DNA of 12,692 bases from a virus (taxonomy: Duplodnaviria > Heunggongvirae > Uroviricota > Caudoviricetes), in the IMG/VR virus record IMGVR_UViG_2617270948_000001, positions 1 to 12,692 of that record. One strand, written 5' to 3'. This document shows positions 1 through 12,692 of the stretch, one piece after another. The translations under genes and the position numbers were made by a program. How positions within the stretch are numbered: the stretch's first letter is position 1; every line of letters begins with the position of its first letter. The notes below the pieces were generated by a model. It did not search any database. It saw nothing but the letters and a program-made list of their open reading frames with translations, and was not told the DNA's origin.

Positions 1-47
1 CATTCGTAATGCGAAGGTCGTAGGTTCGACTCCTATTATCGGCACCA
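1..47 (+). tRNA. thrW: 3' portion of a tRNA-Thr(CGU) gene (anticodon loop TTCGTAA, T-arm GGTTCGACTCC, acceptor 3' strand, terminal CCA at 45-47); window starts inside the gene; probable prophage attachment site
   Basis: Matches the canonical tRNA 3' half: T-loop GTTCGA, acceptor strand TATCGGC complementary to a GCCGATA 5' end, encoded CCA. A P22-type integrase is convergent 14 bp downstream. Identification as thrW is from memory of that tRNA and of P22 integrating there. Confidence 0.7.
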
Positions 48-61
48 TTAAAATCAATAAG

Positions 62-1225
62 TTACACATCATTAGTACCTTCCTTATTTTTTGACTGGGA
101 CAAATTTGGGACCGATGGGTTCAGGATCGAGTCTATTTGCCGTGCGTGTTCGGTAAGGTGATTAGGTGCAAGGTGAGCATATCGACGAACCATTTCGATA
201 GACTCCCAGCCTCCCATTTCCTGTAACACTGACAACGGGACTCCGGCTTGAACCAGCCAACTTGCCCAGGTGTGTCTCAAGTCGTGAAATCTGAAATCAT
301 CAATACCAGCCCGTCTCAGCGCCGCTTTCCAGGCTGTGTTTGCGTCATACCGCATCTTCCTTACTGTTGGCGCTTTCGTTCCGTCTGGTTTGGTACAGCT
401 TTCCTTGTACACAAATACCCAACGGTGATGATTCCCGATTTGTTTTTTCAATACGCGACATGCAGTATCATTCAGCGCAACGCCAATTGCGCGGTTTGAT
501 TTACTCTCTTCCGGGTTTATCCATGCCACCCGGCGCTGCATATCTATTTGTTGCCATTCAAGGTTGATGATGTTCGAGCGTCTTAAGCCTGTTGCCAGTG
601 CAAATTCAACAACAGACTTTAATGGCTCCGGACATTCATCAATCAGCCTTTGTGCTTCATGGGGCTCCAGCCAGCGGATCCGTTTATTCTTTGGTTGAGG
701 CACTTTAATAATTGGTGCCTTATCCAGCATTTTCCATTCACGCTCTGCGGCTCTTAGTAGGGCCTTTATAAATGAAAGATGCGTAGCCTTCGTTGCAACG
801 GACGCTGGTTTTGGCGTGTATTCTGGAACAGGTTTCCCTTTTTTTCTGCATGCTTCTGCCCTGAGTTTCCAGTTTTCCTCATGACGCCGGTTCGTCATTT
901 TCTGCATTGCTGAATAAATTTTTGATTCAGTAATGTCTCTTAGTTGCATTCCTGCGAAATGTTGAAGCCAGAATCCGATCCGGCTTTTGTCATCGTCCAG
1001 TGATTTTTTATGTGCTTTCTCTTCAAGCCACCTGACACAAGCTTCCTCGAACGTTATATCAGGTATTTCACCAAGTTTGCTGACCCGCCATGCTTCAGCC
1101 TTTAGCTTGTCATGGAGTTCTGTCGCCTGCCTTTTGTCCTTTGTTCCAAGAGACTGTTTAAATCTTTTACCGTTCGGCAATGTGAAACTGGCGTACCATA
1201 TTTCACCTCTGCGGAAGAGTGACAT
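62..1225 (-). CDS. int: Tyrosine recombinase / phage integrase, P22-Int type (387 aa)
   Basis: ATG at 1225 preceded by GAGGA; TAA at 62-64. Protein begins [22 protein letters not shown] as recalled for P22 Int. C-terminal catalytic signature HDLRHTWAS ... VRRYAHL (HxxR and Tyr nucleophile). Adjacent to tRNA 3' end. Confidence 0.93.
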
Positions 1226-1452
1226 TTTCTTTCCTCTGTTATGCCATCACCCGCGCTCACCTGGACAGTATGCAGCGGAGACTGAAGCGCCGCAATGCAG
1301 GCTTGTCGTGTTGTGAGGTAAGGAGATTTTAGTTTAGTGGGGTCTTTGCGTGTTGCCTGTAGGCGGCCTGTTCGTATCCAGTTGGTAGCGGTAGGTCTGG
1401 ATATCTTGAGAAACTGACAGGCCTCATCGAGTGTGAGGCTGTATGATTCCAT
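1102..1452 (-). CDS. xis: Excisionase, AlpA/Xis-type HTH (116 aa from ATG at 1452); 3' end overlaps int 5' end
   Basis: ATG at 1450-1452 preceded by AGAGG; the listed ORF extends 10 codons further only via a GTG. Protein [31 protein letters not shown] is the AlpA/excisionase HTH family. Position immediately upstream of int. Confidence 0.8.
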
Positions 1453-1702
1453 GGTTACCTCTGCTTTTTGAACGCATGTCACGTAACTTCTTAATGTGTT
1501 CTGCCGTTTCGATCTCTTCTGCTATCCGATCTGCATCAGCTTTATTCACAGGTTCAAAGTCATGATTAAAGCGGAACATGCTGGCGATACATGTTCTGCC
1601 TTTTCGGATGTAGTGAACTTTGTTGTGGGTAGAACGCAGGATTTTGCAGGGAGTGCCGTGGTGGTCGACGTACCAGGTGTTAGGCAAAATGATTCTGAAC
1701 AT
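1424..1702 (-). CDS. Hypothetical small early-region protein (92 aa)
   Basis: ATG at 1702 with GAGGTG Shine-Dalgarno 7 nt upstream; co-oriented with the early left operon; 3' end overlaps xis start by about 29 nt. No family recognised. Confidence 0.5.
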   Translation of the reverse strand: MFRIILPNTWYVDHHGTPCKILRSTHNKVHYIRKGRTCIASMFRFNHDFEPVNKADADRIAEEIETAEHIKKLRDMRSKSRGNHGIIQPHTR

Positions 1703-1749
1703 TTTTACACCTCAGTTGGACGATGTTGAAATTTGCTGCTTTGAGGCCA

Positions 1750-1968
1750 TCACAATCCCCATTGTTTGTTCTTAAGTTCGATCTCCTCCTGGCAACTTGC
1801 ACAAGTCCGACAACCCTGAACGGCCAGGCGTCTTCGTTCATCTATGGGATCGCCACACTCACAACAATGAGTGGCAGATATAACCTGGTGGTTCAGACGA
1901 CGCATTTTTATTGCTGTATTGCGCTGTAATTCTTCGATTTCTGATGCTGAATCAATGATGTCTGCCAT
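1750..1968 (-). CDS. TraR/DksA-family C4 zinc-finger protein (72 aa)
   Basis: Motif C-x2-C-x17-C-x2-C (CCECGDPIDERRRLAVQGCRTCASC) typical of DksA/TraR zinc fingers. ATG at 1968, co-oriented with early operon. Confidence 0.8.
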   Translation of the reverse strand: MADIIDSASEIEELQRNTAIKMRRLNHQVISATHCCECGDPIDERRRLAVQGCRTCASCQEEIELKNKQWGL

Positions 1969-2022
1969 CTTCCATTAATCCCTGAATTGTTGGTTAATAC
2001 GCTTGAGGGTGAATGCGAATAA

Positions 2023-2045
2023 TAAAAAAGGAGCCTGTAGCTCCC
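2023..2045 (-). terminator. Possible intrinsic terminator (minus strand): GGAGC-ctgta-GCTCC hairpin followed by a T7 run on the minus strand
   Basis: Plus strand reads aaaaaaaGGAGCctgtaGCTCC; on the minus strand this is a 5-6 bp GC-rich stem followed by TTTTTTT. Lies between two small early genes. Confidence 0.4.
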
Positions 2046-2066
2046 TGATGATTTTGCTTTTCATGT

Positions 2067-2282
2067 TCATCGCTCCTTAAAGACGCCGTTTAACATGCCG
2101 ATTGCCAGGCTTAAATGAGTCGGTGTGAATCCCATCAGCGTTACCGTTTCGCGGTGCTTCTTCAGTACGCTACGGCAAATGTCATCGACGTTTTTATCCG
2201 GAAACTGCTGTCTGGCTTTTTTGATTTCAGAATTAGCCTGACGGGCTATGCTGCGAAGGGCGTTTTCCTGCTGAAGTGTCAT
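2067..2282 (-). CDS. Hypothetical small protein (about 71 aa from ATG at 2282; alternative ATG at 2348; listed ORF start at 2381 is a TTG)
   Basis: Open frame ending TGA at 2067-2069; ATG at 2280-2282 with weak GGGA upstream. Start codon uncertain. No family recognised. Confidence 0.4.
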   Translation of the reverse strand: MTLQQENALRSIARQANSEIKKARQQFPDKNVDDICRSVLKKHRETVTLMGFTPTHLSLAIGMLNGVFKER

Positions 2283-2358
2283 TGAACAAGTCCCATGTCG
2301 GCAAGCATAAGCACACAGAATATGAAGCCCGCTGCCAGAAAAATGCATTCCGTGGTTG

Positions 2359-2916
2359 TCATGCAGCCTCCCGACGGGCAAGAATCCTTGAGCCGAACGC
2401 CATCAACTCTCCACGATCAACGGTCGTAAAGTGGCAGTGTGTACGGGGGTATGGGTGCCAGATAATGAGCATCGAGCCTTTATTATTTCCACTGACGGGT
2501 TTCTCAGTGAGTGGGTTAATAAATGCCAGTCGTCCTGCCGTGATGAATCTGACCTCACTGGCGGTTTGTATCGCTTCATGAAACCATCCGACAGATGTGT
2601 CAGCAGGCAATAACATTACACATCCCACACTACTGAATTTGTTTTCAGTGGCTGCCTTTTTCACAAAAGGGGAAATATTGCTGTATGGTGGATTCAACCA
2701 GACATAACCAGAGGCATATCCCATTGCTTCAGGCCATGAAGTGGTTAATGTGTTCTGCTCCTGTGAGATAAAAAGCCGACATAGTCGGTTTTTTTCGCTG
2801 GCGGCAGCATCAAGTTGAAAAACGAACTCTGCATTAAGCGCAGCAAAAATCTCTGGTGGTGTGCGCCAGCTGTCGCGATGTTCGGCAGGAGTATTGCTTC
2901 CGGTGAAATCAGTCAT
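2359..2916 (-). CDS. Phage Dam-family N6-adenine DNA methyltransferase (185 aa)
   Basis: Contains WRTPPEIF near N-terminus and the NPPY catalytic motif (WLNPPYSN), the layout of the phage N-6-adenine-methyltransferase (Dam) family. ATG at 2916 with GGGGG upstream. Confidence 0.85.
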   Translation of the reverse strand: MTDFTGSNTPAEHRDSWRTPPEIFAALNAEFVFQLDAAASEKNRLCRLFISQEQNTLTTSWPEAMGYASGYVWLNPPYSNISPFVKKAATENKFSSVGCVMLLPADTSVGWFHEAIQTASEVRFITAGRLAFINPLTEKPVSGNNKGSMLIIWHPYPRTHCHFTTVDRGELMAFGSRILARREAA

Positions 2917-3070
2917 ACAGCCCCCGTTTATTATTTATCGCCTCAGCCAGCCGCTGTGCTTTCAGTGGATTTCTGATAACAGAAAGGCCGGGAAATACCC
3001 AGCCTCGCTTTGTAACGGAGTAGACGAAAGTGATCGCGCCTACCCGGATATTATCGTGAGGATGCGTCAT
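2909..3070 (-). CDS. Unlisted small ORF (53 aa, [53 protein letters not shown]) between exo and the methyltransferase
   Basis: ATG overlaps the exo TGA stop (ATGA), and its TGA overlaps the methyltransferase start (ATGACTGA). Below the ORF-track length cutoff. Occupies the slot of the small ORF downstream of exo in lambda. Confidence 0.4.
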
Positions 3071-3747
3071 CGCCATTGCTCCCCAAATACAAAACCAATT
3101 TCAGCCAGTGCCTCGTCCATTTTTTCGATGAACTCCGGCACCATCTCGTCAAAACTCGCCATGTACTTTTCATTCCGCTCAATCACGACATAATGCAGGC
3201 CTTCACGCTTCATGCGCGGGTCATAGTTGGCAAAGTACCAGGCATCTTTTCGTGCCACCCACATGCTGTACTGCACCTGGGCCATGTAAGCCGATTTTAT
3301 GGCCTCGAAACCACCGAGCCGGAACTTCATGAAATCCCGGGAGGTAAACGGGCATTTCAGTTCAAGGCCGTTGCCATCACTGCATAAACCATCGGGAGAG
3401 CAGGCGGTGCGCATACTTTCGTCGCGATAGATGATCGGGGATTCAATAACATTCACGCCGGAAGTGAACTCAAACAGGGTTCTGGCGTCGTTCTCGTACT
3501 GTTTTCCCCAGGCCAGTGCTTTAGCGTTAACTTCCGGAGCCACACCGGTGCAAACCTCGGCAAGCAGGGTGTGGAAGTAGGACATTTTCATGTCAGGCCA
3601 CTTCTTTCCGGAGCGGGGTTTTGCTATCACGTTGTGAACTTCTGAAGCGGTGATGACGCCGAGCCGTAATTTGTGCCACGCATCATCCCCCTGTTCGACA
3701 GCTCTCACATCGATCCCGGTACGCTGCAGGATAATGTCCGGTGTCAT
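3067..3747 (-). CDS. exo: Lambda exonuclease (Red-alpha, 226 aa)
   Basis: Near-identical over full length to lambda Exo as recalled ([40 protein letters not shown] ... GFVFGEQWR). Start overlaps bet stop by 4 nt. Confidence 0.96.
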
Positions 3748-4529
3748 GCTGCCACCTTCTGCTCTGCGGCTTTCTGTTTCAGGAATCCAAGAGCTTTTAC
3801 TGCTTCGGCCTGTGTCAGTTCTGACGATGCACGAATGTCGCGGCGAAATATCTGGGAACAGAGCGGCAATAAGTCGTCATCCCATGTTTTATCCAGGGCG
3901 ATCAGCAGAGTGTTAATCTCCTGCATGGTTTCATCGTTAACCGGAGTGATGTCGCGTTCTGGCTGACGTTCTGCAGTGTATGCAGTATTTTCGACAATGC
4001 GCTCGGCTTCATCCTTGTCATAGATACCAGCAAATCCGAAGGCCAGACGGGCACACTGAATCATGGCTTTATGCCGTAACATCCGTTTGGGATGCGACTG
4101 CCACGGCCCCGTGATTTCTCTGCCTTCGCGAGTTTTGAATGGTTCGCGGCGGCATTCATCCATCCATTCGGTAACGCAGATCGGATGATTACGGTCCTTG
4201 CGGTAAATCCGGCATGTACAGGATTCATTGTCCTGCTCAAAGTCCATGCCATCAAACTGCTGGTTTTCATTGATGATGCGGGACCAGCCATCAACGCCCA
4301 CCACCGGAACGATGCCGTTCTGCTTATCAGGGAAGGCGTAAATTTCTTTCGTCCACGGATTAAGGCCGTACTGGTTGGCGACGATCAACAATGCGATGAA
4401 CTGCGCATCGCTGGCATCACCTTTAAATGCCGTCTGGCGAAGAGTGGTGATCAGTTCCTGTGGGTCGACAGAATCCATGCCGACACGTTCAGCCAGCTTC
4501 CCTGCCAGCGTTGCGAGTGCTGTACTCAT
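3744..4529 (-). CDS. bet: Lambda Beta single-strand annealing protein (Red-beta, 261 aa)
   Basis: Matches lambda Bet as recalled ([66 protein letters not shown] ...), same length. Confidence 0.96.
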
Positions 4530-4534
4530 CCGTT

Positions 4535-4831
4535 TTATACCTCTGAATCAATATCAACCTGGTGGTGAGCAATGGTTTCAACCATGTACCGGATGTGTTC
4601 TGCCATGCGCTCCTGAAACTCAACATCGTCATCAAACGCACGGGTAATGGCTTTTTTGCTGGCCCCGTGGCGTTGCAAATGATCGATGCATAGCGATTCA
4701 AACAGGTGCTGGGGCAGGCCTTTTTCCATGTCGTCTGCCAGTTCTGCCTCTTTCTCTTCACGGGCGATCTGCTGGTAGTGACGCGCCCAGCTCTGAGCCT
4801 CAAGACGATCCTGAATGTAATAAGCGTTCAT
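4535..4831 (-). CDS. gam: Lambda Gam, short (GamS-length, 98 aa) form only
   Basis: [60 protein letters not shown] ... VDIDSEV matches lambda Gam from its internal Met. The upstream in-frame extension is closed by TAA at 4907-4909 and has no ATG. Confidence 0.92.
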
Positions 4832-4906
4832 GGCTGAACTCCTGAAAATGGCTGTGAAAAAATCGCCCGCGGAATGCCTGGCTGATTCGGAAAACAGGAA
4901 AGGGGA

Positions 4907-5284
4907 TTAGTGATTCAGACCGTTGCCGCGTCCGTCGAGAAAAACTTCCACGAGCAAGTCACGGGTATAAGTGCGCTCAATGCCGCGATGCAGATAAAGT
5001 CGTCCGCGTAAATTAGCTGATGCAGTCCAGGTACCATCTTTGCGTTTGACCAGCATTCCTGGCATGACCGCACCTCGATTAACGGTCTGCGTTCCGTAAT
5101 GTTGATGAACCATAAAAACTCCTGCCCGTAAGCTGGGCTGCTGAACATATAGAGACTTCTGCGCGTATTCAGGCGGTGGATGGCCGCCGGTTGTCATAAC
5201 TAAGCCGCCTCGTTGAAGCGACTGAGGTATGAAGTGTTGAGTTGATTTCAGCTGGTCACACCGACGTTCACGCGTCCGCTTCAC
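4907..5284 (-). CDS. Hypothetical protein, first gene downstream of putative PL (N position); 125 aa if GTG at 5284, or 68 aa if ATG at 5113; arginine-rich N-terminus KRTRERR
   Basis: Open frame 4907-5317 (the listed start is TTG). GTG at 5282-5284 has GGAG 8 nt upstream; ATG at 5111-5113 has AGGAG 5 nt upstream. N-terminal KRTRERRCDQLK resembles the arginine-rich motif of N antiterminators (lambda TRRRERR). C-terminus does not match lambda Kil (which ends ...WILILKLRSSKSIH in the frame overlapping gam). Confidence 0.3.
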   Translation of the reverse strand: MKRTRERRCDQLKSTQHFIPQSLQRGGLVMTTGGHPPPEYAQKSLYVQQPSLRAGVFMVHQHYGTQTVNRGAVMPGMLVKRKDGTWTASANLRGRLYLHRGIERTYTRDLLVEVFLDGRGNGLNH

Positions 5285-5390
5285 CCCTCGCACTCCCCGG
5301 AGCCTGCTGAAATTCAAGCTGCGGATCTAAGCGGTCATCGCAACGGTGAATCAGGTGATTGCCGTATCGTTGTGTTGTTGCGATGAATTC

Positions 5391-5434
5391 ATTTAAAACT
5401 ATAGTTGTTTTATCGTCAACAACAAAAGTTGTTT
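5391..5434 (-). promoter_or_regulatory. Putative PL promoter and OL operator cluster (GTTGTT/AACAAC repeats overlapping a TTGACG -35)
   Basis: Minus strand: TTGACG (complement of 5414-5419), 17-bp spacer, TTAAAT (complement of 5391-5396). Overlapping GTTGTT(5404-5409)-N8-AACAAC(5418-5423) and AACAAC-aaaa-GTTGTT(5428-5433), the same half-site as the OR palindrome. Confidence 0.35.
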
Positions 5435-5561
5435 TGTTGGTTATTTTAGAAATAACTGGTTGTATTTAGGATGGATTTATTTTGTGACTTGCATCGCATA
5501 GCGATAACTGAAGCGAGGTTGTGGTGGTTTTTTGAACGGTGTGTGTGATGAGGGGAGGGGC

Positions 5562-5597
5562 AAAAGAAAACCCGGCACGGTGGCCGGGTTGTTTTTA
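5562..5597. terminator. Strong bidirectional intrinsic terminator (8-bp stem AACCCGGC/GCCGGGTT, loop acggtg, flanked by A-run and T-run)
   Basis: aaaagaaaaCCCGGCacggtgGCCGGGttgttttta; T-tract on either strand. Lies immediately 3' of the 316-aa minus-strand gene (stop at 5595-5597), ending the cI-cassette transcript before the PL region. Confidence 0.75.
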
Positions 5598-6545
5598 TAG
5601 CTCATTGTAAACAGCAATAGGCTCAATGAAATACTCATCAGAGTCAGGGGCGCAAAATGTTGACTCCAGATCAAAAAGGCTGTCATTCATATTCCAGACT
5701 GCACTGCGAATGCCGTTTAGTTCACGAGCCTCTGATTCCTGATTACCTTCAGACGTTGATGTACGCGTTATTATCCCTACGACTGTGAATGCAGAGGTCG
5801 TTCGACGAGAATATAACTTTACAAACATTTCTGGACTGATTTTAAGAAAATCTCTGATTAAGAATGAGGTGAATTTAATATCTTGCATTTTTTGTGATAT
5901 TTCTATTTCGTCACCATATGCGTAATCTAAAACAGAAGACAAATGCTCAAAGAATTTTTTCTGATTTGGAGATGTTAAATTATCAAGCTCACTTTTAATT
6001 TCTGCTTGTCTTGCCTTGATAATATTAAATTCATTGGATTTGGGTTTTATCGATTTCAGCATCGATTCTAGACTTTCTAATTCGTCATTTCGATGAACGA
6101 AATTAATAGCATAGTTAGTTTTACAGAAATTCTTAGCGGTATTTTTTAATTTATTATAGTCATTAAATTGAATTGGGCAGGTGATTTTAACAAAGCAATT
6201 AGCCTTAATTTTGTTCGAGTCGATCGGGGAAGTTATGTTAGACAGAATTCCTCTTTTGCTAAGTTCGTTTTCAAATTTCAGATAATGATAATCATGAGGG
6301 TTTAACACTGTTGATATTTTTTTTGTGTCACTCGTTTTACTTGAACTACTTTTTGTCTTTATTTCGACCGCATCTATATTTGAAAGAGTAGACTCTTTAT
6401 GCTCCATCGCGGATTGAATTACGCCCTCAAATAATTGAGAGCTTAAAGAGTAGACCTTCTCATAATCAATATAAATGATATTTTTTAACTGCATACCAAT
6501 TCCATTAGTGATATTTAAGTTGTTCTTTCTTTCTTTCAAAGTCAT
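5595..6545 (-). CDS. Hypothetical soluble protein (316 aa; possibly 299 aa from internal ATG at 6494), AT-rich cargo, no recognised family
   Basis: Long open frame in strongly AT-rich DNA unlike the flanking phage genes. Last gene of a three-ORF cassette co-oriented with cI. No Walker or other motif recognised by eye. Confidence 0.6.
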   Translation of the reverse strand: MTLKERKNNLNITNGIGMQLKNIIYIDYEKVYSLSSQLFEGVIQSAMEHKESTLSNIDAVEIKTKSSSSKTSDTKKISTVLNPHDYHYLKFENELSKRGILSNITSPIDSNKIKANCFVKITCPIQFNDYNKLKNTAKNFCKTNYAINFVHRNDELESLESMLKSIKPKSNEFNIIKARQAEIKSELDNLTSPNQKKFFEHLSSVLDYAYGDEIEISQKMQDIKFTSFLIRDFLKISPEMFVKLYSRRTTSAFTVVGIITRTSTSEGNQESEARELNGIRSAVWNMNDSLFDLESTFCAPDSDEYFIEPIAVYNEL

Positions 6546-6681
6546 CGCTATTTGACTTTCTGACCCTTTCTATGTGCATTAAAGTTTCCTGTGCATTTTT
6601 GAGGTTTTTTCTTGAAAACCATGCCAATACAGCAGGTATCACAACAGCTATTATGGATAAAATAGTAATTAAGTACTCCAT
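6505..6681 (-). CDS. Unlisted small membrane peptide (58 aa, MEYLITILSIIAVVIPAVLAWFSRKNLKNAQETLMHIERVRKSNSDDFERKKEQLKYH), single N-terminal TM helix
   Basis: ATG at 6679-6681 lies 3 nt after the TAA of the upstream 138-aa gene, whose last codons (CAG GAG TAA) supply an AGGAG Shine-Dalgarno. 3' end overlaps the 316-aa ORF start by 41 nt in another frame. Below the ORF-track cutoff. Confidence 0.45.
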   Translation of the reverse strand: MEYLITILSIIAVVIPAVLAWFSRKNLKNAQETLMHIERVRKSNSDDFERKKEQLKYH

Positions 6682-6684
6682 AAT

Positions 6685-7101
6685 TTACTCCTGCGCCACT
6701 ACTTTGTTATTGATAATAGCACACCTGACTGAATTTTGTCCAATGTATAAGGATATACCACAAGTAATAGCGACTAATATGCGAGTCGTATTCATGTTAA
6801 GGATGTTATCAGCCAGCATAACAATAATGTAAATTATAGAAAAAAGTACAATGAAAACAATCGATATGGTAGTGTTTATAATAATATTGTTTTCAGTTTG
6901 CTTGCTGGGTTGGCCCATTCCGTAATAAATACTGGATATTTGTATGGCAAAGCCAAAACATATCAACTCAGTTATATTGATCAGCTCTATGTTTTTATTA
7001 GTGATGAAATAAGCAATAAATCTAATAAAGATAGGGATTGCTCCAATGATTACTGTTCCGCACCACCACTTGAAATAATCACTATGAATATTATGTTGCA
7101 T
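6685..7101 (-). CDS. Hypothetical integral membrane protein (138 aa, about four predicted TM helices), first gene after cI
   Basis: Hydrophobic segments WWCGTVIIGAIPIFIRFIAYFI, ELICFGFAIQISSIYYG, ISIVFIVLFSIIYIIVMLA, ILVAITCGISLYIG. ATG at 7101, 49 bp downstream of the cI stop. AT-rich. Size and topology resemble RexB but no sequence similarity is claimed. Confidence 0.6.
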   Translation of the reverse strand: MQHNIHSDYFKWWCGTVIIGAIPIFIRFIAYFITNKNIELINITELICFGFAIQISSIYYGMGQPSKQTENNIIINTTISIVFIVLFSIIYIIVMLADNILNMNTTRILVAITCGISLYIGQNSVRCAIINNKVVAQE

Positions 7102-7149
7102 TATATAAACTCAATATTTAATTAATTTAAAGTTTCATAAGTTCCATGT

Positions 7150-7839
7150 TTACCCATGCTTCCTGTACGTCTGCGGCATGCTCCCGATGACTTTCCCGAA
7201 AATGAATACCCGGTTCATCTCGTCTTTCTCGATCGGGTCCCACGGTGAGTAACTCTTGTTATCAGAGATAACGAGCAGCTTATCCTTCATCATTTGCAGG
7301 CGCTTTACATGGGCTGTGTCGTCGTACAGAAACGCATAGATACCATCACCGTCGAAAGATTTAACAGTGATATCAACGAACAAAAGGTCACCTGGTTCGA
7401 TCGTTCCTGACATGCTGTCACCGCGTACGTTAATGATGCGGATATTTTCTGCCTTCCTACCATCGAACATGTGACGAGCATCGTCAAACGAGTACTCAAC
7501 CGAGCGTAGAACTTCTACAAACTCACGGTTGATGACTCCCGGCCCGGCACTCACTTCTATATCAAGAACGTCAATCTTAAAGTATTTGGAATGGCTGACA
7601 GTTGATTGTATTGGTTGCACTGTACTGTCTGACATATTTCCAACGCCAGAAGATAACCATTCTGCGCGCACACCCAAAGCGTTCGCGATCTCCACGATTT
7701 TAGTTGTTTGATTAGCTTTCCCTGTTTCGATTTTCTGAATAGCAGCCTGGCTAACCCCGACCAAATCCCCAAGCGCCTTTTGTGTAAGGCCTCGCGCTAA
7801 TCTGGCTTCTTTAAGTCTTTCTGAGAGTGTTGTTTTCAT
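7150..7839 (-). CDS. CI-like prophage repressor (229 aa from ATG at 7839): N-terminal XRE-type HTH plus C-terminal LexA-like S24 autopeptidase domain
   Basis: HTH segment LTQKALGDLVGVSQAAIQKIETGK; Ala-Gly cleavage site in VSAGPG; catalytic Ser in RGDSM and Lys in HVKRL. The listed ORF start at 7905 runs through the operator region. ATG at 7839 has almost no leader, consistent with a PRM-type leaderless transcript. Confidence 0.85.
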   Translation of the reverse strand: MKTTLSERLKEARLARGLTQKALGDLVGVSQAAIQKIETGKANQTTKIVEIANALGVRAEWLSSGVGNMSDSTVQPIQSTVSHSKYFKIDVLDIEVSAGPGVINREFVEVLRSVEYSFDDARHMFDGRKAENIRIINVRGDSMSGTIEPGDLLFVDITVKSFDGDGIYAFLYDDTAHVKRLQMMKDKLLVISDNKSYSPWDPIEKDEMNRVFIFGKVIGSMPQTYRKHG

Positions 7840-7931
7840 AGTCCAAATGTACAACCAAGGTTTTATTCCATCAAACGAAAATGGTTGTTGACTAAAAACA
7901 ACCATAGTTTTAATCTTGATTCAAATTAACC
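7840..7931. promoter_or_regulatory. OR-like immunity switch: divergent PRM (minus) and PR (plus) promoters with a 25-bp perfect palindromic operator
   Basis: Palindrome ATGGTTGTT-gactaaa-AACAACCAT at 7881-7905. PR: TTGACT (7888-7893), 17 bp, TAATCT (7911-7916). PRM on minus strand: TTGATG (complement 7869-7874), 17 bp, TACATT (complement 7846-7851), about 7 nt before the cI ATG. Extra ACAACC/GGTTGT half-sites at 7851-7856 and 7937-7942. Confidence 0.55.
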
Positions 7932-7943
7932 ATGGAGGTTGTT

Positions 7944-8174
7944 ATGAACCCAGCTATCAAAACAGCGATCAATATCGTTGGTTCACAAAAGAAACTGGGC
8001 GCTGCTTGCGAAGTTTCACAGCAGGCCGTCTATAAGTGGCTTCACAACAAAGCAAAGGTATCCCCTGAACATGTCGGCAGCATTGTTACGGCTACTGGTG
8101 GAGTAGTGAAGGCATACCAGATTCGCCCGGATCTTCCGAAGTTGTTTCCACACACCGAAAAGAACGCAGCTTAA
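7944..8174 (+). CDS. Cro-like small HTH regulator, DicC/YdaS-like (76 aa from ATG at 7944; the listed ORF begins at an upstream ATG at 7932)
   Basis: GGAGG at 7934-7938 sits 5 nt before the ATG at 7944. Sequence SQKKLGAACEVSQQAVYKWL is a DicC/YdaS-type HTH. Divergent from the repressor across the operator region. Confidence 0.7.
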   Translation: MNPAIKTAINIVGSQKKLGAACEVSQQAVYKWLHNKAKVSPEHVGSIVTATGGVVKAYQIRPDLPKLFPHTEKNAA

Positions 8175-8186
8175 ATTTCCATTTCA

Positions 8187-8199
8187 CGCTCTTTAACAA
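8187..8199 (+). promoter_or_regulatory. boxA-like element CGCTCTTTAACAA at the nutR position just downstream of cro
   Basis: GCTCTTTAACAA matches the E. coli rrn/lambdoid boxA consensus as recalled. Located 13 bp after the cro-like stop, where nutR lies in lambda. No convincing boxB hairpin seen downstream. Confidence 0.35.
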
Positions 8200-8243
8200 T
8201 AAGCAATCAACTTAACAGTCAATTCAAACTAAAGGAGTCAATT

Positions 8244-8783
8244 ATGCAACCACTTACATACCAACAGACTAGCGGATTTAGCCCGACTGCGGTGATAAAT
8301 CGTTCTCAAACAAAACAGGTGCCAGGCCACGAAAAAATCCGTGATGCCGTCCGCGCCTGGTCGGCTGTAGATAATCAGGATGTCGTTGCCACACTCATTG
8401 TGAATGAGTATCGGGAGCAGGGCGGCGGCACCATCGATTTCCCTGATGATGTCAGCCGTGCACGCCAGAAGCTGTTCCGCTTCCTCGATAACAAATTCGA
8501 TTCTGAAAAATACCGAAATAACGTGCGTGAACTGACCCCGGCAATTCTGGCTGTACTACCGCTGGAATATCGCGGCCACCTGGTTGAGCAGGATAGCTTC
8601 ATGGCTAGGCTGGCTGAAATGGAAAAGGAACTCAGTGAGGCAAAACAGGCTGTCATTCTCAACGCACCACGCCACCAGAAACTGAAGGAGATGAGTGAAG
8701 GCATTGTGTCGATGTTTCGAGTGGACCCGGATCTGGCAGGTCCATTGATGGCGATGGTCACCACCATGCTGGGGGCAATATGA
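8244..8783 (+). CDS. YdaT-like protein at the cII position (179 aa)
   Basis: AGGAG 7 nt upstream of ATG at 8244. Segments NEYREQGGG and LTPAILAVLPLEYRGHL resemble recalled Rac YdaT (EEYLRQGGG, LIPAILAILPRELRHRL). Follows a YdaS/DicC-like cro as in Rac-type immunity regions. No similarity to lambda CII. Confidence 0.5.
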   Translation: MQPLTYQQTSGFSPTAVINRSQTKQVPGHEKIRDAVRAWSAVDNQDVVATLIVNEYREQGGGTIDFPDDVSRARQKLFRFLDNKFDSEKYRNNVRELTPAILAVLPLEYRGHLVEQDSFMARLAEMEKELSEAKQAVILNAPRHQKLKEMSEGIVSMFRVDPDLAGPLMAMVTTMLGAI

Positions 8784-8869
8784 CATGTTCAGAAATGGCG
8801 AAAGCCGGTCTGCTGGAACAGAACCGACTTTCAGGTGCAAATCGTAACGCACTCATTGCGGGAGGAATT

Positions 8870-9799
8870 ATGGCAAACACTGCTGAGATATTCAATTTTC
8901 CAGTGCCGGATGCGGCACAAAAGGAGCCGCGCGTGGCAGATCTCGATGATGGTTATACGCGCATTGCAAATGAGTTGCTGGAAGCTGTGATGCTGGCCGG
9001 ATTAACACAGCACCAGCTTCTGGTCTTCCTGGCTGTCATGCGCAAAACATATGGCTTTAATAAAAAACTGGATTGGGTGAGCAACGAGCAACTTTCCGAG
9101 TTGACCGGGATATTGCCGCACAAGTGTTCTGCTGCAAAAAGTGTTCTGGTAAAGCGTGGGATTTTTATTCAGAGCGGGCGGAATATAGGCATTAATAATG
9201 TGGTCAGTGAATGGTCAACATTACCCGAATCAGGTAAGAAAAATAAAGTTTACCTGAAAGAGGTAAATTTACCTGAATCAGGTAAGAAAAGTTTACCCAA
9301 ATCAGGTAAAGGCACTTACCCGAATCAGGTAAACACAAAAGACAAACTAACAAAAGACAATATAAAACCTTATTCGTCCGAGAATTCTGGCGAATCCTCT
9401 GACCAGCCAGAAAACGATCTTCCTGTGGTGAAACCGGATGCTGCAATTCAGAGCGGCAGCAAGTGGGGGACAGCAGAAGACCTGACCGCCGCAGAGTGGA
9501 TGTTTGACATGGTGAAGACCATCGCGCCATCAGCCAGAAAACCGAATTTTGCAGGGTGGGCTAACGATATCCGCCTGATGCGTGAACGTGACGGACGTAA
9601 CCACCGCGATATGTGTGTACTGTTCCGCTGGGCATGCCAGGACAACTTCTGGTCCGGTAACGTGCTAAGTCCGGCCAAACTCCGCGACAAGTGGACCCAA
9701 CTCGAAATCAACCGTAACAAGCAACAGGCAGGCGTGACAGCTAGCAAACCAAAACTCGACCTGACAAACACAGACTGGATTTACGGGGTGGATCTATGA
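8870..9799 (+). CDS. O: Replication initiator O (lambda O family, 309 aa from ATG at 8870; listed ORF start at 8780 is probably an upstream in-frame extension)
   Basis: GGAGG 4 nt before ATG at 8870. MANTAEIFNF ... ADLDDGYTRIANELLEA ... RKTYGFNK parallels lambda O N-terminus (MTNTAKILNF ... ADLDDGYARLSN ... RKTYGWNK). Iterons lie inside the gene. Stop overlaps P start (ATGA). Confidence 0.9.
   Translation: MANTAEIFNFPVPDAAQKEPRVADLDDGYTRIANELLEAVMLAGLTQHQLLVFLAVMRKTYGFNKKLDWVSNEQLSELTGILPHKCSAAKSVLVKRGIFIQSGRNIGINNVVSEWSTLPESGKKNKVYLKEVNLPESGKKSLPKSGKGTYPNQVNTKDKLTKDNIKPYSSENSGESSDQPENDLPVVKPDAAIQSGSKWGTAEDLTAAEWMFDMVKTIAPSARKPNFAGWANDIRLMRERDGRNHRDMCVLFRWACQDNFWSGNVLSPAKLRDKWTQLEINRNKQQAGVTASKPKLDLTNTDWIYGVDL
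9221..9333. repeat. Replication origin iterons: five copies (one degenerate) of an 18-bp dyad TTACC(C/T)(G/A)AATCAGGTAA(G/A), followed by an AT-rich stretch at 9334-9370
   Basis: Copies at 9221-9238, 9249-9265 (degenerate), 9269-9286, 9293-9310, 9316-9333, spaced about 20-28 bp, then cacaaaagacaaactaacaaaagacaatataaaacc. Inside the O gene, as in ori-lambda. Encodes repeated PESGKK in the O linker. Confidence 0.75.
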
Positions 9800-10497
9800 A
9801 AAACATCGCCGCACAGATGATTAACTTTGACCGTGAGCAGATGCGTCGGATCGCCAACAACATGCCGGAACAGTACGACGAAAAGCCGCAGGTACAGCAG
9901 GTAGCGCAGATCATCAATGGTGTGTTCAGCCAGTTACTGGCAACTTTCCCGGCGAGCCTGGCTAACCGGGACCAGAACGAACTGAACGAAATCCGCCGCC
10001 AGTGGGTTCTGGCTTTCCGGGAAAACGGGATCACCACGATGGAACAGGTTAACGCAGGAATGCGCGTAGCCCGTCGGCAGAATCGACCATTCCTGCCATC
10101 ACCCGGGCAGTTTGTTGCCTGGTGCCGGGAAGAAGCATCCGTTACCGCCGGGCTGCCAAACGCCAGCGAGCTGGTTGATATGGTTTACGAGTATTGCCGG
10201 AAACGTGGCCTGTATCCGGATGCAGAGTCTTATCCGTGGAAATCAAACGCGCACTACTGGCTGGTTACCAACCTGTATCAGAACATGCGGGCCAATGCGC
10301 TGACTGATGCGGAATTACGGCGCAAGGCTGCCGATGAACTGGCCTGTATGACAGCGCGAATTAACCGTGGTGAGGCGATACCTGAACCAGTAAAACAACT
10401 TCCTGTCATGGGCGGGAGACCGCTTAATCGTGTTCAGGCTCTGGCGAAGATCGCAGAAATCAAAGCGAAGTTTGGGCTGAAAGGAGCAAGTGTATGA
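9796..10497 (+). CDS. P: Replication protein P (lambda P, DnaB helicase loader, 233 aa)
   Basis: Essentially identical to lambda P as recalled (MKNIAAQMINFDREQMRRIANNMPEQYDEKPQVQQVAQIINGVFSQLLATFPASLANRDQNE ... KFGLKGASV). Confidence 0.96.
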   Translation: MKNIAAQMINFDREQMRRIANNMPEQYDEKPQVQQVAQIINGVFSQLLATFPASLANRDQNELNEIRRQWVLAFRENGITTMEQVNAGMRVARRQNRPFLPSPGQFVAWCREEASVTAGLPNASELVDMVYEYCRKRGLYPDAESYPWKSNAHYWLVTNLYQNMRANALTDAELRRKAADELACMTARINRGEAIPEPVKQLPVMGGRPLNRVQALAKIAEIKAKFGLKGASV

Positions 10498-10667
10498 CGG
10501 GCAAAGAGGCAATTATTCATTACCTGGGGACTCATAAGAACTTCTGTGCGCAGGACGTTGCCGCGGTAACAGGCGCAACCGTAACCAGCATAAATCAGGC
10601 TGCGGCTAAAATGGCGCGGGCAGGAATCCTGGTCGTTGATGGTAAGGTCTGGCGAACGTTTGTTTAA
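10494..10667 (+). pseudogene. ren: Truncated ren (57 codons versus about 96 in lambda); marks the point where lambda-like sequence ends
   Basis: ATG overlaps P stop (ATGA). MTGKEAIIHYLGTHKNFCAQDVAAVTGATVTSINQAAAKMARAGILVVDGKVWRT matches the lambda Ren N-terminus, then diverges (FV-stop) into AT-rich unrelated sequence. Below ORF-track cutoff. Confidence 0.6.
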
Positions 10668-10813
10668 CGGTTAGCTACTCAGGATGATAGGGCGGGGCAA
10701 GTGAGTATGAAGCGGATTTTCAGGAATGCCATCAGAGTTTGGAAATAAAGTGGGTTTTCTAGTGGCAAGAGACTTGATAATATTTAGTTCTTTGAATCCA
10801 AGGAGATAGGGTT

Positions 10814-11308
10814 ATGAGAAAATTTATTTTAGCCTTTGTTATAAGTGCCTCGTTTACAGCAAATGCTGGTGTAGAGAAGTTAGGGCCGTGGATAACAAAG
10901 TCTGAGATAAATAAAATGACTGATCAGACTGACTTTGTGGCTCTTAATTTATCACCAGATTCATATAACAAAGCAGGTACTGATCGTGCAACTTCACTGG
11001 TGTTGCGTTGTAGTGATAACAAAACAGATGTCTATTTATCATTCAATGATTATATGGGTTCGGACAACCCAAGAATTACAGTACGGTTAGATGGCGGAAA
11101 GCCGGTCAAGAGTGTTTGGGGAGGTGGGGAAGGCGGTGATTCTGCATTTGCTCCACAACCAATACAATTTATAAAGACCTTGGCTAAGCATAAAAAAGCT
11201 ATTTTTGGGTTTGAACCTTATGGATCAACTATGCAAGTAGTTGAGTTTGACTTGTCTGAGATTGATAAGGTTGTGGAAAAAATTTCACAGTCTTGCAATT
11301 GGAAATAA
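10814..11308 (+). CDS. Hypothetical secreted/periplasmic protein (164 aa) with Sec signal peptide; AT-rich cargo
   Basis: AGGAG 8 nt before ATG. N-terminus MRKFILAFVISASFTANA-GVE has a positive n-region, hydrophobic core and an A-x-A cleavage site. Two Cys (C66, C162) could form a disulfide. No family recognised. Confidence 0.6.
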   Translation: MRKFILAFVISASFTANAGVEKLGPWITKSEINKMTDQTDFVALNLSPDSYNKAGTDRATSLVLRCSDNKTDVYLSFNDYMGSDNPRITVRLDGGKPVKSVWGGGEGGDSAFAPQPIQFIKTLAKHKKAIFGFEPYGSTMQVVEFDLSEIDKVVEKISQSCNWK

Positions 11309-11325
11309 CAAAAAAATATCATATG

Positions 11326-11352
11326 AACCCAGTTGGCTCTGGGTTTTTTATT
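11326..11352 (+). terminator. Intrinsic terminator after the secreted-protein gene (stem AACCCAG/CTGGGTT, loop ttggct, then TTTTTTATTT)
   Basis: Perfect 7-bp stem immediately followed by a T-run, 18 bp after the stop codon. Confidence 0.65.
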
Positions 11353-11704
11353 TCTGTTGTCTATAATGTATTCATAATTTTTACTGGGATACAGTGCACA
11401 TAAAATCCCAATTGCGGTAGGACGATAACTGGATCAGGTGGAGGCACTTACGCAAGAATTGATTGTATTAATTTGCATAGAGCAACGCGAAGTTATTTAT
11501 AAATTAACTGATATAGAGTACTAGATGTAATCCGAACCGGTTATGATTCGTCACCAATTTTGCAAGAGGCTGGGTAGGTAAGCTATTGGATACCGTAGGT
11601 AGCAAAAATATAGAAGGAGGGGAAGAATTGCTAAACTCGAGCATTCACTTAAATCTGAGTTATTTATTGTTAAGATATAATACACTTTGAATAATAGAGG
11701 CTAT

Positions 11705-12109
11705 ATGACAACGAAAATAAGCAAAGATGATAAACATCTGCTTGATCCTTATTTAAAATGGCTTGCAAACAAGAAGCTAATGGTTGCCTTCTGGTTGGTG
11801 CTAATGATATGTGGTTGCATATATGCATATATAGAAAATGATTGGTCACTTCTTCCCCGATTCGGATGTTTAGGCATAATGATTGGCACATTGCTTACTC
11901 TTTCTCCGCTTTTTGCAGAAGGTATCTACCTGTCAAGGCGAGAAGCATTTAGTTTTGGTTCGGTACAACAAGATGGGAGCGTCACCTCAACCTCTGAAAA
12001 AGGTCGTGCAGTATCAAGGAATATTCTATGGGGTGTTATCATTATAATCATATCATCGATAATAAATGCATTTGGTGACTTAATAATGGTCACGATTATG
12101 AATGGTTAA
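11705..12109 (+). CDS. Hypothetical small membrane protein (134 aa from ATG at 11705; the listed ORF start at 11687 is a TTG), about three TM helices
   Basis: AGAGG 4 nt before ATG. Hydrophobic segments LMVAFWLVLMICGCIYAYI, LGIMIGTLLTLSPLF, ILWGVIIIIISSIINAFGDLIMVTI. AT-rich. No family recognised. Confidence 0.5.
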   Translation: MTTKISKDDKHLLDPYLKWLANKKLMVAFWLVLMICGCIYAYIENDWSLLPRFGCLGIMIGTLLTLSPLFAEGIYLSRREAFSFGSVQQDGSVTSTSEKGRAVSRNILWGVIIIIISSIINAFGDLIMVTIMNG

Positions 12110-12365
12110 AATAATTAATATTTATGATATTAGTATTATATAACTTAGTATGCTGTTTAATTAAGTCACCGCAGACTTGACACTTGGCGGTAACTTCTGC
12201 GCTAAACGGTGACGTTTATACGCACATACAATCTAAATCCTCTTCTCCCTCCACAGATGCAGAAATATACCTGCGATTTTTTGCATTCGGTGTGTAGTGG
12301 CATAGTGAATTTGGCCACCTGAATAGAGGTGATATCATCACCTCATAGTCAAAACAGGTGACATT

Positions 12366-12677
<312 letters not shown>

Positions 12678-12692
12678 TTGAGAAACTCAGGG

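Follow-up and report, generated by a model that had tools for sequence, protein, structure and literature searches.

Does the sudden end of lambda similarity inside ren mark the place where a prophage has lost its right arm, or a place where two phage sequences were joined? The DNA analysed here (the window, 12,692 nt) holds the left and early half of a lambdoid prophage, in which ren stops after 57 codons, AT-rich DNA follows and an IS element begins before any late gene is reached. The initial annotation took this arrangement for a right arm replaced by cargo, leaving a cryptic remnant. We conclude that very probably it is an ordinary lambdoid mosaic joint, situated in a gene that the phage can dispense with, and that the accessory cargo after it occupies a variable slot separating the replication genes from the nin/Q region. 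The features to the left of the joint are the following:

62–1225, minus strand: integrase, from the ORF list and annotation.
7150–7905: cI-type S24 repressor, with cro/YdaS and cII/YdaT next.
8780–9799: O.
9796–10497, plus strand: P, 233 aa, lambda-type, annotated as replication protein P (PF06992).
10494–10667, plus strand: ren', 57 codons ending in ...GKVWRTFV with TAA at 10665–10667, the N-terminal winged-helix part of Ren.

Positions 1–44 contain the 3' portion of a tRNA gene, directly 5' of the integrase gene (Rfam, 29.7 bits); ARAGORN did not detect this partial tRNA, and an Rfam search of 10400–12400 returned no RNA family. The integrase gene is followed, in order, by an excisionase-like HTH gene, exo, bet, gam and kil, and the interval from kil to cI contains no obvious homologue of lambda N. 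The closest public match was a prophage of E. coli NADC1036, with 99.2% identity across window positions 1–10682 and divergent sequence after that. Because this prophage abuts a tRNA-Thr gene (thrW) that lies downstream of proA, positions 1–44 are probably attL at thrW. P is 93–100% identical to lambda P in most 30-nt blocks, with two blocks at 77–87%.

ren' lies directly after P in the pR operon and its start overlaps the stop codon of P (ATGA at 10494–10497); lambda P and ren are placed in the same way and likewise overlap. Over residues 1–55 the product differs from lambda Ren at seven positions and from the intact 97-aa Ren of NADC1036 at none, and the same residues matched the Ren-like family PHROG 142 (E=1.9e-20). 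Lambda Ren has 96 aa, and the 57-aa product falls short of the roughly 96–100 aa of a full-length Ren with its conserved residues 56–88; the TAA takes the place of Tyr codon 58 in intact Ren. The truncation of ren at codon 57 given by the initial annotation (10494–10667) is therefore correct. Residues 56–88 are nearly invariant across all intact Ren proteins that we examined, which indicates that the part lost from ren' matters. The pseudogene is already known: the exact 57-aa product has been deposited as 'putative defective protein ren from DLP12 prophage', and PGAP annotation of other genomes gives these 269 nt as 'protein ren, frameshifted; internal stop'. Ren is said, from the work of Toothman and Herskowitz in 1980, to counter Rex exclusion and to be dispensable for growth. 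The 'exclusion protein' names in phage records fit this role, the name in the lambda record being 'Ren-like exclusion protein'.

The sequence on either side of the position where close lambda similarity ends was then resolved into two parts of the same gene:

10658–10659, no strand: mosaic joint inside ren, with lambda-type ren to the left and a distant, cargo-linked ren allele to the right.
10659–10790, plus strand: ren 3' remnant of the divergent allele, non-coding, disrupted, besides the TAA, by -1 frameshifts after 10721 and 10755.

The last base in common with lambda-type ren is the G of ...GGCGAACG at 10658. Identity to the ren genes of lambda, PhiR26_1 and NADC1036 was 24–30 of 30 per 30-nt block up to 10658 and 16–23 of 30 beyond it, and GC content fell from 0.52 (10351–10650) to 0.39 and then stayed at about 0.35–0.40 rightward. 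The abrupt end of close lambda similarity that had been noticed near ...GKVWRT is thus placed by the alignment at 10658, and from the proposed deletion or substitution at about 10660 a substitution-type joint at 10658/10659 is retained. The DNA after the stop had also been called unrelated and AT-rich. The drop in GC content to 0.35–0.39 agrees with the second term. The first does not hold, since the sequence from 10659 to about 10790 is a ren remnant: positions 10664–10758 (95 nt) gave an alignment to lambda ren, in its 3' half, with 66% identity (z=14; 2,000 shuffles), and amino acid similarity to Ren persisted to about 10790. After repair of the TAA and of the two 1-bp deletions, the remnant translated as FVYRLATQDDRAGQVSMKRIFKECHQSLEIKWVF, the lambda counterpart being VYYRFATREEREGKMSTNLVFKECRQSAAMKRVL. 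Unrelated cargo therefore starts at about 10800 and not at 10668.

A stretch that is now non-coding and carries three disabling lesions might be thought to have decayed neutrally in place after a nonsense mutation, with no recombination joint at all. Codons 1–55 differ from lambda by 0.19 at synonymous and 0.06 at nonsynonymous sites, while codons 56–88, only about 33 codons, show a saturated synonymous difference of 0.745 and a nonsynonymous difference of 0.30. The two synonymous values imply that the halves of the gene are of very different ages. The replacements in the remnant are of a conservative kind (E→D, K→Q, M→V, V→I), and saturated synonymous change together with fewer, conservative amino acid changes indicates that the remnant had a long history of divergence while still functional and did not decay where it now stands. 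It appears from these substitutions, an argument that rests on about 33 codons, that the 3' part was long under purifying selection before its death. In addition, the remnant is nearly invariant within the carrier lineage (6 of 116 sites variable), which is incompatible with rapid ongoing decay. What decay in place has in its favor, apart from the lesions, is that an intact donor allele was not found. The intact divergent ren allele was absent from 5.8 billion proteins at the sensitivity of a word index, had no match in species-representative genomes, and was represented in IMG/VR by pseudogene copies only and in phage records by the same pseudogene only; intermediates of 80–95% identity to the ren'-cargo junction did not occur in 5,426 complete E. 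coli genomes. Since no collection that we searched contained it, the donor is hypothetical and its lineage unsampled. On balance we find neutral decay in place scarcely credible.

Diversity among carriers of the junction also changes at the joint. Across 43 distinct junction-bearing sequences, pi was 0.04–0.06 on the left (late P and 5' ren) and dropped to 0.017 for the remnant and to 0.006–0.010 for the VasI-like gene that follows it; variable sites numbered 32 of 165 to the left of the joint versus 12 of 155 to its right (p=0.003). The TAA and the two 1-bp deletions are identical in all 19 distinct alleles, which come from 50 independent loci. The junction was found at 95% identity or more in 81 of the 5,426 complete E. 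coli genomes. A further 1,898 genomes with ren matched the first 109 nt of the probe only, at 60–80%. The junction was also present in 40 IMG/VR contigs, in prophages with full late regions and in Escherichia phage IdasGreatGrand, a deposited complete genome of 47.9 kb with integrase, Q, lysis genes and terminase; no paper was found that mentions this phage. Thus ren is inactivated here, and the lesion is real and old. An artefact of sequencing or assembly was considered for the truncation and rejected, because the lesions are common to these 19 alleles and 50 loci and the junction to 81 complete genomes.

The uniform state of the 19 alleles bears on a further possibility, namely that the gene was shortened and not killed, the 57-aa product being a functional, selected mini-Ren that consists of a stand-alone winged-helix domain. 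The ORF is open in 19 of 19 distinct alleles and coupled to P through ATGA, and its sequence ends after the predicted wing strands. The product falls into a PHROG family of its own that is 57 residues long (phrog_7054, E=7.8e-41) and also matched the N-terminal HTH of MarR-type phage regulators (PHROG 1687, E=2e-9). Variable sites within the 57 codons, however, were distributed 7/7/11 over codon positions 1, 2 and 3, with no clear excess at the third position. Moreover, the 5' part is identical to that of intact ren alleles and more diverse than the remnant, which points to exchange with intact genes, and such exchange would be enough alone to keep the ORF open. The strong conservation of residues 56–88 in all intact Rens and the naming of the product as defective by both PGAP and depositors also speak against a functional short form, which we regard as quite improbable.

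The loss of the right arm can be judged at the other end of the cargo, where the IS element was inserted:

12258–12275, plus strand: terminator-like hairpin with a T run after it, a short way 5' of where the IS inserted.
12290–12292, no strand: GTG, left copy of a 3-bp target-site duplication (empty site ...TTCGGTGTTTTTGG..., filled site GTG-IS-GTG).
12293–12692, plus strand: left 400 bp of an IS3-family element, with the left inverted repeat TGTAGTGG... and orfA at 12366–12677, continuing past the window end.

It is true, as the initial annotation had stated, that the window contains no nin, Q or late gene after ren before the IS; the IS starts at 12293, some 1.6 kb on. Decayed relatives are likewise real: in K-12 DLP12, IS3 splits what is left of P and ren, and the strain L022 keeps only window positions 10872–12293 beside unrelated genes. 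On the cryptic-remnant reading, a deletion or substitution at about 10660 would have removed the nin, Q, lysis and morphogenetic genes. We compared the window with chromosome CP112983.1, which is 99.99% identical to positions 814–12692 and has this IS in the same position, and with a sister prophage on contig DADBZB010000002.1, which has no IS there and matches at 99.96% as far as 12293. The two differ by a 1,259-bp insertion, made up of the 1,256-bp IS and the 3-bp GTG, and beyond it they are 100% identical for 8,557 bp. The IS has the ends TGTAGTGG...CCACTACA, with terminal TG...CA inverted repeats, and encodes orfA (profile matches HTH_Tnp_1 and transpos_IS3) and orfB (rve integrase); the orfA/orfB pair, the terminal inverted repeats and the 3-bp duplication place it in the IS3 family, and copies 99.5% identical to it occur in many E. 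coli genomes. Its insertion point is intergenic, 184 bp after the membrane-protein gene described below and 8 nt after the T run of the hairpin.

The 8,557 bp past the IS encode a Bro-N/P22AR antirepressor, several small ORFs, ybcN, ninE, ybcO, rusA, ylcG and Q, followed by holin, lysozyme, spanin, an HNH endonuclease, TerS and TerL. Within the 8.5 kb read, then, CP112983.1 shows no loss of nin/Q, lysis or packaging genes. The IS insertion is clean and nothing was deleted with it, so a replaced right arm is not supported; the genes that were missed lie behind the IS up to the terminase large subunit, and the same junction occurs in a complete phage genome and in prophages with full late regions. 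These results largely refute the cryptic-remnant reading of the initial annotation, and we consider loss of the right arm at the ren junction very improbable. Although nin, Q and late genes were found just past the IS, the ren frame was not restored, because its lesion is real and old.

L022 (GCA_031444945.1, locus 8000–16500) is a truly decayed relative, and as such a remnant of the type first proposed for this element, but in a different strain. The piece that it retains consists of a truncated VasI-like gene and the membrane-protein gene. Early-region fragments (TraR/DksA-like, DUF1382 and DUF1317 genes) lie on its left, and on its right the genes from the antirepressor through ninE are followed by tail-fibre genes and a foreign integrase.

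Between the remnant and the IS there are two cargo genes, separated by a boundary at which most genomes' matches end:

10800–11354, plus strand: moron-like unit, with RBS AAGGAG at 10800–10805, ORF at 10814–11308 and terminator at 11325–11346 plus T run.
11385–11386, no strand: second module boundary, where most carriers of the ren'-VasI unit part from the window; most genomes' matches stop at 11385 and a subset continue to 12293.
11705–12109, plus strand: membrane protein of 134 aa, predicted to span the membrane three times, with an alternative TTG start at 11687.

The ORF at 10814–11308 encodes a VasI/TagO-like, periplasmic, beta-rich protein of 164 aa with a predicted signal peptide. Its match to the Pfam family VasI (PF11319) is marginal at 29.0 bits against a cut-off of 26.5, and it fails the NCBIfam equivalog TIGR03360 with 16.1 bits against 124.2; it also matched PHROG 1848. 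No type VI secretion cluster surrounds the gene, every context that we examined (Escherichia, Klebsiella, Citrobacter and IMG/VR contigs) being a prophage, and the protein had no match in species-representative genomes. From the marginal Pfam score, the failed equivalog and the absence of a type VI secretion context, the 'TagO' label of PGAP is a weak homology name. The AlphaFold (AF2) model is a beta-rich domain (pLDDT 83), and its closest fold match was the Bartonella invasion-associated protein B (IalB, 3dtd) with a TM score of 0.57–0.65. The 134-aa ATG form of the membrane protein is the version on public record, where it is named hypothetical protein; exact look-up of the 140-aa TTG-start form gave no match. 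The membrane protein belongs to no known family, its sole NCBIfam match being weak (16.4 bits against a cut-off of 95), and PADLOC had no defence model for either cargo protein.

The VasI-like unit resembles a moron in the sense of Juhala and Hendrix (reviewed in PMC3594210), as it is a discrete AT-rich gene with its own terminator. Its GC content is 0.37–0.40, compared with 0.52–0.58 in P and ren, and homology to other copies stops at 11349–11352, just after the hairpin at 11325–11346 and its T run. The copies in other phage contigs, which are 78% identical in DNA, sit before the tape-measure gene and cover just 10800/10806 to 11349/11352 with nothing leftward, so that the conserved unit begins at the RBS. 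Like a moron, it is present or absent between similar phages (it is missing from the NADC1036 thrW prophage) and occupies a different genome position elsewhere. In contrast to a typical moron, no clear promoter of its own was found by scanning: a sigma-70 consensus scan of 10668–10813 gave no convincing candidate upstream of the gene. The cargo genes may be expressed by read-through from pR or from a weak promoter of their own.

The carriers of the junction vary in integrase and integration site, in immunity region and in late genes, which suggests that the ren'-VasI module moves by recombination among lambdoid phages. Other carriers are integrated at tRNA-Arg (argU, the DLP12 site), as S21 is. 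The interval that the module occupies, from ren to ybcN or nin, is an accessory region whose variation is normal among lambdoid phages; we found nothing in the literature specific to it. Up to ybcN/ninE it holds ninB, ninC and ninD in lambda, an AAA ATPase plus RloB in NADC1036 and PD-lambda-1 in PhiR26_1, and up to ybcN it holds emrE, ylcJ, ybcK, ybcL and ybcM in K-12 DLP12.

Comparison with known systems gave the same picture of a shared backbone with exchangeable contents. The O-P-ren order is that of lambda, in which an intact 96-aa Ren is followed by ninB-ninC-ninD-ninE, whereas here ren is dead and other modules replace ninB to ninD before ybcN and ninE. DLP12 shares an intD-type integrase, P, ren, accessory genes and the ybcN-ninE-ybcO-rusA-ylcG-Q series, and both elements have a defective ren, an IS3-family element in the region and foreign cargo between ren and ybcN. 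They differ in how ren was lost and in what surrounds it. In DLP12, ren is split by IS3 itself and P and exo are fragments; in the window, ren is disabled by nonsense and frameshift lesions at a mosaic joint and the early region is complete. The cargo is emrE-ylcJ-ybcK-ybcL-ybcM in the former and the VasI-like and membrane-protein genes in the latter, and DLP12 lies at argU, while the near-identical prophage of NADC1036 lies at tRNA-Thr (thrW).

A fixed position with conserved phage flanks and swappable cargo is also found in the P2/P4 hotspots (PMC9122126) and in prophage-borne PD systems (PMC9519451). The slots of relatives carry annotated defence genes, PD-lambda-1 and the AAA ATPase with RloB; the two cargo proteins of the window differ in that they match no PADLOC model. 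A role of these two proteins in defence is a guess, and so is a part for the VasI-like protein in envelope-acting lysogenic conversion. We think it unlikely that either the 57-aa Ren fragment is a stand-alone winged-helix regulator or anti-exclusion protein, or the VasI/IalB-fold protein, seen solely in cargo slots of prophages across Enterobacteriaceae, is an envelope-acting factor of lysogenic conversion or superinfection exclusion.

For the mosaic joint we propose the following course of events. An ancestral phage would have had the distant ren allele directly upstream of the VasI-like moron. Recombination within ren, at 10658/10659, may then have joined a lambda-type O-P-ren 5' segment to the 3' part of the distant allele. 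The hybrid ren is dead through the TAA at codon 58 and the two -1 frameshifts, and its loss was presumably tolerated since the phage can grow without it. From there the ren'-VasI unit could have passed, as one module of low diversity, through lambdoid phages and prophages, and later the 1,256-bp IS3-family element would have transposed into the lineage of the window, with a 3-bp duplication and no deletion. Red-type recombinases are reported to recombine diverged sequences and to build phage mosaics (PMC2327257, PMC3945230), and exo and bet are encoded in the window; Red-type recombination is likely to have been the mechanism that made the joint.

The consequence is mainly one of correct annotation: the window carries an old and widespread ren pseudogene, the right arm carries on past a simple IS insertion, and the window alone is no ground for counting the element among truncated prophages. 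The locus is a tidy example of a recombination joint in a dispensable gene, and it marks the interval from ren to ybcN/nin as a cargo slot, occupied in some relatives by genes of defence type and in the window by genes for two uncharacterised envelope proteins.

Homologues of the VasI-like gene were also observed in Klebsiella and Citrobacter prophages (L107–L112, 54–63% identity), in a variable slot between a tail assembly chaperone gene (DUF6246) and the tape-measure gene, where KilA-N, antirepressor, Arc-like and SocA/Panacea genes are their neighbours; this tail-region slot has the look of a second hotspot for cargo, in another type of phage. In the window itself, YdaS-type (PF15943) and YdaT-type (PF06254) proteins are encoded in 7932–8783 at the cro and cII positions, as in relatives. 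A second AT-rich island (5595–7101, GC 0.29–0.35) lies between kil and cI, at the position of lambda rexAB, and contains genes for a DUF6414 protein (316 aa), a 58-aa ORF and a 138-aa membrane ORF. At the same position relatives carry a 535-aa SIR2_2 protein, HipA_2 with DUF3037, or an ASCH-domain protein with a 353-aa partner, and the island looks like another variable, possibly defence-related slot.
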